Source of the DNA: Naegleria gruberi
Lineage: Eukaryota
Assembly (NCBI GenBank): GCA_000004985.1
Contig: GG739301.1
Reading direction: 5' to 3' (one strand)
Length of the DNA stretch: 1,951 nt
Shown here: positions 1-1,260 of the stretch, one piece after another
Layout of the letters: every line of letters starts with the position of its first letter
Position numbering within the stretch: the stretch's first letter is position 1
The notes under the pieces: generated by a model
Told to the model about the DNA's origin: nothing
What the model saw: the letters and a program-made list of their open reading frames with translations, nothing else
The model's database searches: none
Made by a program: the position numbers and the translations under genes

Positions 1-633
1 TGAATTGTCTAATATTAACATGTCGTCTATGTAAATAAATATGATTGTGCCTCTCTGCCTCCATTTCTTGATAACTTCCTTCATTATTATGATGAATAAC
101 TGAGGGGCTGTACTTAAACCGAACGGAAGGCATTGAAAGTGGTAAGTTTTGCCTTCGAAGATGAATCCTAATAGGACTTTGTGTTGTTTCCTTACTGGAA
201 CTTGAAAATAACCTTTCTTTAAATCCAGCTTGCATGCCCACATTCCTTTTCTTATGAATTTCATAACTTTTTGAATGGATTCCATCTTGAATGTGTCTGT
301 GCTTATGCCACCGTTTATCTTTCTTAGGTCCAAGATAAACCTGTATTGGTCTGAACCTTTCTTTGGGACAACGTTGATAGGATTTAGAACTGGATTTAAA
401 GAATAGGCTATAATATGGTTTTGTAACATGGAGTCTATCTCTCTCCTTATCCATGCTTTCTCTTTCTGAGAGAACTTCCTCTGGTGGTAGCTTTTCCATT
501 GGCTGGAATCTGTATCGATTGGAATTCCGTTTTTTATCCAATCTACGATTGTTTCTGAGACGCCGAATTCTTTCCAACGTTGATGGAAATGAGAGAGTCT
601 GCCACCTAGAGGAACCTGCTTGTCACTTATTGA
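1..633 (-). CDS. Retroelement pol ORF, N-terminal half of the reverse transcriptase domain. Probably DIRS-like (tyrosine-recombinase retrotransposon); Ty3/gypsy-like is the alternative. Partial: the C-terminal remainder lies beyond the window start.
   Basis: I translated the minus strand by hand in the frame ending at position 1. There are 211 sense codons between the stop TAG (plus 634-636) and the window edge. The translation reads SISDKQVPLGGRLSHFHQRWKEFGVSETIVDWIKNGIPIDTDSSQWKSYHQRKFSQKEKAWIRREIDSMLQNHIIAYSLNPVLNPINVVPKKGSDQYRFILDLRKINGGISTDTFKMESIQKVMKFIRKGMWACKLDLKKGYFQVPVRKQHKVLLGFIFEGKTYHFQCLPFGLSTAPQLFIIIMKEVIKKWRQRGTIIFIYIDDMLILDNS. Canonical RT blocks and their plus-strand coordinates: GGRLSHF..W (586-606), VVPKKGSDQYRFILDLRKIN (313-372), KLDLKKGYFQVPV (193-231), LPFGLSTAP (103-129), YIDDM (19-33). 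The spellings R-x-I-L-D-L-R-K-I-N (rather than CVDYRxLN) and LPFGLSTAP (rather than MPFGLxNAP), together with the GGRL..F...W....D..V..WI..G N-terminal motif, are what I recall as diagnostic of DIRS/Ngaro-type RTs. Confidence 0.85.
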
Positions 634-636
634 CTA
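1..636 (-). mobile_element. Retrotransposon fragment (minimal extent; the pol ORF runs off the left edge). The 5' boundary, any ITR/LTR, and gag are not identifiable in the window.
   Basis: The RT ORF above supports this. No long ORF or terminal-repeat structure is recognisable in 637-1340, so only the coding part can be delimited. Confidence 0.75.
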
Positions 637-1260
637 AGATTGATTGAGGAGGAGGAATTGGAGTTGTTAGAACCGTATCCATGGTTATTAAATTGTCTTC
701 TTCCAATATAAGTGGTTGGTGTTTGCTCTTGGCTATTGGAATGGTATGAGTGATATGGGACGAAGTGGTTGGACTTTTGATTAAATCTTCTCTTTTGAAA
801 GTTTATTATATTGAGAGACAGGGTTAATAATAATAAATGTTGAATAAGAGAACAATAAGACCATTACAAAAAAAGGAAGAAGACCCTCTTCTTCCTAATC
901 AAAAAAGTAAGGAATCTGTTGGGTTCCTAAACTGGTTAAGAGAATTAATCTGTTCATGGTCTATACTGTTGAGTTTCTCAATGATTGTAGCTCTTGTTGT
1001 TGTTTGCTTAATTGGACTTGCATGGAATTTGTGAATCAGGATACCACAGATAATAGAAACTTGTATCCTAAGAAAGGAATGCAAGAATTTGTTAATCAAA
1101 TGGTGTGGTTGTGGTGAGCATTTAACCATGTTGATTAATAAAAGGAAAGTGTTGTTGATACTTGGAGAAGCAAGTCTTCCTCTTTTAAATTCAACTTTTG
1201 CTTCATATTCAGCAGAAATGAAACTTGCAATCAAAATATACTATCAGTAACATGCAAAAC

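Follow-up and report, generated by a model that had tools for sequence, protein, structure and literature searches.

The window, by which we mean the whole 1,951-nucleotide stretch of Naegleria gruberi DNA analysed here, most likely holds a dead copy of a DIRS-order retroelement. On the strength of sequence comparisons we give this reading a probability of roughly 0.8, and the copy would on this account be truncated at its 5' end and damaged at the junction ahead of its reverse transcriptase (RT), with the RT part itself left intact. Two lesions are proposed. The larger would have replaced everything upstream of ~803–815 with unrelated DNA, at the cost of the start and ~330 codons of the gag-like ORF1, while the smaller, a 10-nt insertion at 634–643, would put a TAG into the RT frame and shift what is left of the ORF1 tail to a TAA. 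The missing RT start is thus ascribed to truncation and insertion together, and both are an ordinary kind of decay. The element lies on the minus strand, so that upstream of it means towards higher positions; all positions in the window are those of the plus strand. As a decayed transposon copy the finding is of little weight in itself, and its wider value is a by-product of comparing the relatives.

Relatives and class of element

A word-based protein search with the RT returned only two close proteins, and a full HMMER scan returned 35,779 relatives at E ≤ 0.001, the best-scoring of which supply the features described here. Their ORFs are 600–700 aa long. An N-terminal motif, GRL..F...W, occurs in dozens of them, many of which start just 4–25 residues ahead of it, and towards the C-terminus there is a DxFA...PP...VP.WP region with weak matches to Dam (PF05869). 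The viral-contig and genome-contig collections searched gave no match. The DNA of the relatives is available as short metagenomic and Logan contigs, the nearest from ERZ4903137, SRR26782601 and SRR3989338. Amino acid identity to the window over the RT is 82–85% for L001, 73% for L003, 69% for L013 and 47–61% for L002 and L004–L008, and these lineages (L001, L002, L003, L004, L005, L006–8 and L013, at 47–85% RT identity) are referred to below as the close clade.

Three ORFs follow one another on the same strand in L003–L008 and L013: ORF1 (345–399 aa where intact, with an Asn-rich tail and no Pfam match), an RT/RNase H/Dam-like ORF of 626–668 aa, and a Phage_integrase, or tyrosine recombinase (YR), ORF. 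The Phage_integrase family scores 28.6–43.9 bits against a cutoff of 27.1 in L003, L005, L006, L007 and L009. Dam (PF05869) stays under the 28.1-bit cutoff in both P0151 (E = 6e-4) and L001 (E = 1.4e-3), and precomputed Dam matches exist for P0154–P0156. Two contigs are shorter: L001 holds an ORF1 remnant and the RT/RNase H/Dam-like ORF before it ends, and L002 an ORF1 of 391 aa, intact, followed by the beginning of the RT. A 1-nt deletion interrupts the RT of L001, and its ORF1 is cut elsewhere than that of the window. L013, which derives from the same ENA sample as L001 (ERZ4903137), has at ~1020–1030 an ORF1 body in the RT frame and a frameshift before the Asn-rich tail, with its ATA AAT GAC junction kept. 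L001 and L013 are thus slightly decayed, which makes relics common in this family of elements.

The first and last 30 nt of the L006 contig (1–30 and 4098–4127) are identical, and the contigs of L007 and L008 repeat its sequence in circularly permuted form. Three sequencing runs have thus yielded this element, whose RT is 47% identical to that of the window, as a circle or tandem array of 4097 bp in which just 137 nt lie between the recombinase stop and the ORF1 start. The circular assembly could reflect tandem copies, or else the circular intermediate that has been proposed for DIRS replication.

Judged by this gene content, the window element belongs to the DIRS order of tyrosine-recombinase retroelements (PMC3266345, PMC3783388, PMC6681497) and not to the retroviral gag-pol or LTR elements. 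The recombinase is seen in the relatives, the window itself ending inside the RT at position 1, and the assignment is one at the level of the order, DIRS1-like and PAT-like elements being told apart by their termini (ITRs with internal complementary regions as against split direct repeats). Neither ITRs nor internal complementary regions were found in the window, L003, L005, L006 or L007, the relatives' contigs ending at or inside the element. With DIRS1-like and PAT-like elements (PMC3266345) the relatives share a gag-like ORF1, a pol that joins RT and RNase H to a putative Dam-like methyltransferase, a tyrosine recombinase instead of a protease and a DDE integrase, overlapping ORFs, and GRL..F...W at the RT N-terminus. 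Relics with indels and frameshifts are common to both and are reported for Naegleria gruberi, the DIRS-like copies of Naegleria being heavily decayed (PMC3266345). Points of difference are the Dam match, which in the relatives falls below the Pfam threshold, and the arrangement of the ORFs, for classical Dictyostelium DIRS-1 has a long pol/YR overlap whereas the order here is ORF1–pol–YR with a 4-nt ATGA overlap. Ngaro and VIPER elements likewise have three ORFs (gag-like ORF1, RT/RH and YR), usually without extensive overlap, but they are without the methyltransferase domain (PMC3266345), while the relatives here keep the DxFA...PP...VP.WP region and the weak PF05869 match. Among proteins that carry an organism name, the closest is Naegleria fowleri FDP41_013244 (KAF0980761.1), itself a decayed RT ORF and only a moderately close relative, with 49% identity to relative P0003 over half its length.

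Retroviral and Ty3-gypsy gag-pol elements resemble the clade in having a gag-like ORF ahead of the RT, and the RT fold is related to that of Ty3/gypsy (PMC3266345). They differ in that the RT of the clade lies +1, rather than −1, to ORF1, with no slippery heptamer, and in that a YR ORF follows downstream. The relatives have no Pfam matches to protease or DDE integrase, and there are no long direct repeats (LTRs) in the window, L003, L005, L006 or L007. In an element of the DIRS order, the absence of a protease, an integrase and a −1 frameshift is to be expected. The premise of the original prediction that pol should be reached from gag by a frameshift of the retroviral type therefore fits the wrong class of element, and for purposes of annotation the RT is one of the DIRS order and not that of a gag-pol LTR element.

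The RT frame, the ORF1 remnant and the two lesions

Positions 1–633 of the minus strand encode the N-terminal 211 codons of an RT/RNase H/methyltransferase-like ORF, which is open from plus 633 down to plus 1 and there runs, intact, off the edge of the window. The frame matches Pfam RVT_1 (E = 4e-18), with GGRL at plus 595–606 and a YIDD motif near plus 20–30, and was fully open in 0 of 5,000 shuffles. Compared with L001, 53 of 83 substitutions in the RT fall at codon position 3, a pattern by which the RT part appears to have diverged under purifying selection. The window copy would descend from an active element and its decay would be recent. The absence of any lesion across the 211 codons indicates that the copy is young, or conceivably still used, and in the latter respect it counts against reading the copy as dead.

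What had first been read from the letters of this region holds on re-examination. A TAG at plus 634–636 shuts the RT frame exactly nine codons (SISDKQVPL) before GGRL. The two remaining minus-strand frames meet a TAA (plus 627–629) and a TGA (plus 623–625), so that the three stops, predicted to lie within ~35 nt, in fact lie within 14 nt. The earliest ATG of the RT frame, at plus 427–429, is the 69th codon of the open stretch, 59 codons past GG (some 60 had been predicted) and beyond the conserved motif. Stops make up ~5.5% of codons in this AT-rich stretch, and by chance alone ~35 nt would contain a stop in each of the three frames with a probability of ~0.1. A three-frame stop cluster is thus unremarkable in such DNA and becomes meaningful only through its position. 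The three stops, moreover, differ in origin: the TGA is the normal ORF1 stop of the family, the TAG was brought by the insertion, and the TAA is reached via the frame shift that resulted from it. A ciliate-type genetic code, with TAA and TAG as Gln, would reopen the RT frame upstream but was ruled out. The window RT spells each of its 13 Gln residues with CAA or CAG, no in-frame TAA or TAG interrupts the 600-codon RT ORFs in the relatives, and recombinase ORFs end in TAA or TAG, from which it follows that the code is standard.

Upstream of the RT, in a frame other than its own, the minus strand at 627–803 retains an Asn/Ser/His-rich C-terminal tail of ORF1 some 55 codons long, recognizable by homology to the relatives. 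The remnant is without a start codon and ends at the TAA of plus 627–629 instead of the family TGA. Its identity rests on several comparisons. By blastn, the minus strand of the window aligns to L001 482–1276 with 83% DNA identity, from plus 803 down to 1; the ORF1 tail of L001 aligns in turn to residues 224–282 of the L003 ORF1 (E = 7e-6); and the ORF1 of L002 gives a weak tblastn match to the frame of the window remnant. Side by side, the tail reads NFQKRRFNQKSNHF... in the window and NFQKKRFNNQRFNHF... in L001.

Between this remnant and the RT lies the smaller lesion. In a junction alignment of six lineages, ten extra bases, TCAATCTTAG, are present in the window alone (634–643, minus strand), and the last three of them are the TAG that closes the RT frame. 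They may be an imperfect tandem duplication of the TCAATAAGTG that follows. The distance from ACTCCAAT to TGAC is 31 nt in the window and shorter in L001 (21 nt) and L003 (18 nt). Ten not being a multiple of three, the ORF1 tail now runs into the TAA at 627–629. The family's own signal, an ORF1 stop with the next base (TGA-C, 622–625 on the minus strand), is still there, as it is throughout the close clade, with the RT frame reading xxT GAC (Asp). Two codons before GAC, in the RT frame, an ATA (628–630, minus strand) aligns with an ATG of L002 and is a possible near-cognate restart codon.

The larger lesion is a breakpoint at 803–815, where homology to the element family ends: the blastn alignment stops at plus 803, or L001 482. 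The L001 sequence carries on as ORF1 for another ~87 nt past the equivalent of plus 803, to L001 ~395, and on this comparison the breakpoint therefore belongs to the window copy. Missing from the window are ~330 codons of ORF1, including its start. ORF1 proteins of five relatives, used as tblastn queries (E ≤ 0.1), found no match to the ORF1 body anywhere in the window, and 804–1951 has no significant blastn match to any relative. There is no long minus-strand ORF in 637–1341, each frame having 10–16 stops.

These results bear out most of what had been claimed for the region upstream of the RT and complete it. The claims that no gag-sized minus-strand ORF exists in 637–1340 and that the only candidate, at 899–1234, lacks an ATG and gag character both stand, the latter ORF beginning with TTG and having neither a Pfam match nor similarity to the relatives' ORF1. 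That there is no upstream gag is right for the body of ORF1 and wrong for its last ~55 codons, which remain. Besides this tail, the earlier reading had overlooked the family TGAC stop and the 10-nt insertion that makes the TAG. That the 5' part was lost through a deletion or a recombination event, one of the two possibilities put forward, is supported, as is the forecast that the junction would fall between 637 and 900. The comparison with intact copies that had been called for (here with relatives from metagenomes) finds ORF1 present upstream of the RT; an ORF1 of 345–399 aa directly precedes and overlaps it in intact relatives, and the window aligns to them only from ~803 down. The absence of ORF1 reflects the truncation of this copy and not the nature of the element family.

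DNA beyond the breakpoint and competing explanations

From 804 to 1341 the window consists of AT-rich DNA without ORFs or homologues in any of the searches made. It is unrelated to the element and represents flanking or inserted DNA. Beyond it, at 1342–1951 on the plus strand, a divergent frame of at least 203 codons opens with an ATG and runs off the window. It includes a run of six His residues as well as Ser-rich stretches, and was fully open in 0 of 5,000 shuffles. Neither Pfam nor a search of 5.8 billion proteins matched this frame, which is probably a host or other orphan gene that lies outside the element and is transcribed divergently. Its interpretation as an inverted ORF1 was rejected, one weak tblastn alignment (E = 0.43, uncorrected) having failed confirmation by BLASTP. 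The cut of L001 at ~395 also adjoins a divergent ORF (L001 3–344, minus strand) with a Ser/Thr/Lys-rich N-terminus, MARSKSKTSAPS...; it has no similarity to the plus-strand ORF of the window and was dismissed as its homologue. On the minus strand at 868–896 there is a perfect 10-bp hairpin (AGGAAGAAGA GGG TCTTCTTCCT) followed by T7. No other site between 600 and 1400 resembles a terminator (0.2 such sites expected), and the hairpin falls in the unrelated DNA just upstream of the ORF1 tail. Scans of the window for tRNAs, Rfam families and tandem repeats found nothing.

The copy might have been interrupted instead of truncated, by a segment that includes the plus-strand ORF of 1342–1951 and was inserted in ORF1 at ~803–815. 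A real-looking ORF on the opposite strand, without homologues, does lie upstream of 803, the rest of ORF1 could lie past the edge at 1951, where the window stops, and DIRS elements nest and cluster, as is established for Dictyostelium DIRS-1. We nevertheless think such an insertion unlikely: the ~803 junction has, within the window, no terminal repeats or target-site signs, and L001 is also cut in its ORF1, in another place and beside an unrelated divergent ORF, so that simple loss fits equally. Truncated or interrupted, the copy is non-functional, and the practical conclusion is the same. It is harder still to believe that the join at ~803 is chimeric and that the 10-nt insertion is a mistake introduced in low-complexity sequence. 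The relatives do all come from short metagenomic or Logan contigs, in which repeats are easily mis-joined, and the insertion adjoins short repeats (TCC and TCAAT, three times each); however, ten inserted bases are atypical of a sequencing error, and the composition profile has no abrupt change at 803. Of the explanations considered, this one strikes us as the least credible.

Very improbable, too, is a gag-less subfamily for which the window would represent the normal organization, its RT being made by initiation at Met-427, by way of a spliced transcript, or from the ATG of an ACCATGG (plus 680–682) by a +1 shift at AAG-UGA-C. Such a subfamily would agree with an RT part that is fully open and conserved, with the persistence of the conserved TGAC and ATA in the window, with an ATG of good context whose frame meets the TGA of TGAC 19 codons further on, and with the closest relative, L001, which is likewise without most of ORF1. 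Yet the cuts in L001 and in the window fall in different places, beside flanks unrelated to each other, the next-closest L003 and L013 have long ORF1s, and the insertion that carries the TAG occurs, among the six lineages aligned, in the window only. A start at Met-427 would in addition forfeit 59 conserved residues, including GGRL..F...W, that are present in all relatives. Neither internal initiation there nor splicing, both put forward in the original prediction, finds support. What survives of the broader idea that the family expresses pol differently is that the RT is a separate cistron in +1 overlap with ORF1, in an element of the DIRS order. The ACCATGG itself (minus strand, 679–685) has a strong Kozak context, and its frame ends at TGAC 19 codons on; the equivalent in L001 reads CAAGG, which makes this ATG specific to the window copy and probably fortuitous.

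Stop and start codons at the junctions of the clade

The comparison that identifies the damage in the truncated copy also brings out how the intact junctions are built. In every member of the close clade ORF1 ends in TGA followed by C (L001 653–656, L002 1240–1243, L003 956–959, L004 1062–1065, L005 1198–1201, L006 1037–1040 and L013 1174–1177), and in all eight close relatives the RT frame is +1 to ORF1. Across the clade the TGA ends 7–28 nt ahead of the GG codons (CG in L013, which has CGRL); in the window, L001, L002 and L003 this spacing is 16 nt. Upstream, the seven relatives measured, a set without L013, keep the RT frame open for 73–95 codons, against nine in the window. Read in the RT frame, the T and the C of TGAC are both at synonymous positions, and GAC and codons ending in T are each used only about half of the time in these ORFs. 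Two codons before GAC, the RT-frame codon begins with AT in six aligned sequences and in L013, being ATG in L002 (ATGGCTGAC) and ATA or ATC in the other relatives that have it; in L006–8 it is GAA. Further RT-frame ATGs are found at variable distances (−13 to −69 codons), and the codon before the UGA varies as well (AAA, AAG, AGA, CAA or GGC). Between RT and recombinase, stop and start overlap as a 4-nt ATGA, a classic arrangement of coupled translation, in five of five lineages (L003 2813–2816, L004 2913–2916, L005 3061–3064, L006 2906–2909 and L013 3034–3037). No TURBS-like UGGGA motif is conserved upstream of these stop and start sites.

This layout, with UGA-C in a +1 overlap at one junction and AUGA at the other, suggests coupled translation or +1 frameshifting. 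Tentatively, and with the expectation that it will sooner fail than hold, we propose that the three cistrons of this Naegleria-related DIRS clade might be translated from one RNA by termination-coupled events. Ribosomes could terminate near the UGA-C and reinitiate, with the RT restarting at a mostly non-AUG codon (AUG or AUA). The AU- codon near the stop (in the six aligned sequences and L013), the ATG found there in L002 and the ATGA shared by RT and recombinase speak for a restart of this kind, and the lack of a conserved TURBS-like motif against it. Alternatively, UGA-C being a weak context for a stop, a programmed +1 frameshift could take place there; a C that invariably follows the stop and an RT that lies consistently +1 to ORF1 would agree with this, while the variable codon before the UGA and the want of a shared slippery site would not.

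Both routes have precedents. Frameshifting by +1 at a stop codon occurs in antizyme, at UCC-UGA-U, and in bacterial RF2, at CUU-UGA-C, and the position of the clade's RT in the +1 frame at UGA-C is alike. Stop-start coupling is described for the UAAUG of SART1 and the AUGA/UAAUG sites of caliciviruses and influenza B, where near-cognate codons can work with reduced efficiency (PMC10275272); the clade compares with these in its ATGA at the RT/YR junction and in having an AUG (L002) or AUA/AUC of the RT frame only a few codons away from the UGA-C. It departs from the known coupled and frameshifting systems in being without a TURBS-like UGGGA and a common slippery site. The translation of DIRS pol is not addressed in the literature found, and the conserved stop/start architecture offers a testable hypothesis for the expression of DIRS pol and recombinase. 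The window copy, with no translation of ORF1 to couple to, would be unable to make RT by the family's route, and if coupling is true it would constitute a natural knock-out of the junction signal.

A T/I-rich extension of the RT frame upstream of TGAC was considered as a case of dual coding and rejected, since neither open frame exceeds the other in mean amino acid identity (~0.2 each). That the +1 frame is open is attributed to the hydrophilic, Asn-rich composition of the ORF1 tail.

More distant relatives (L009–L012, 32–39% identity) have junctions of other kinds, among them a −1 overlap and gaps of 5 and 260 nt, so that the TGAC/+1 layout is specific to the close clade and not DIRS-wide. 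The RT of L009 is −1 to ORF1, its frame being open ~190 nt upstream of the ORF1 stop, a TAG. In L012 the called RT start follows a TAA by 5 nt and the RT frame is open ~115 nt upstream of that start, and in L011 the RT has an ATG of its own ~95 nt after a TAG.
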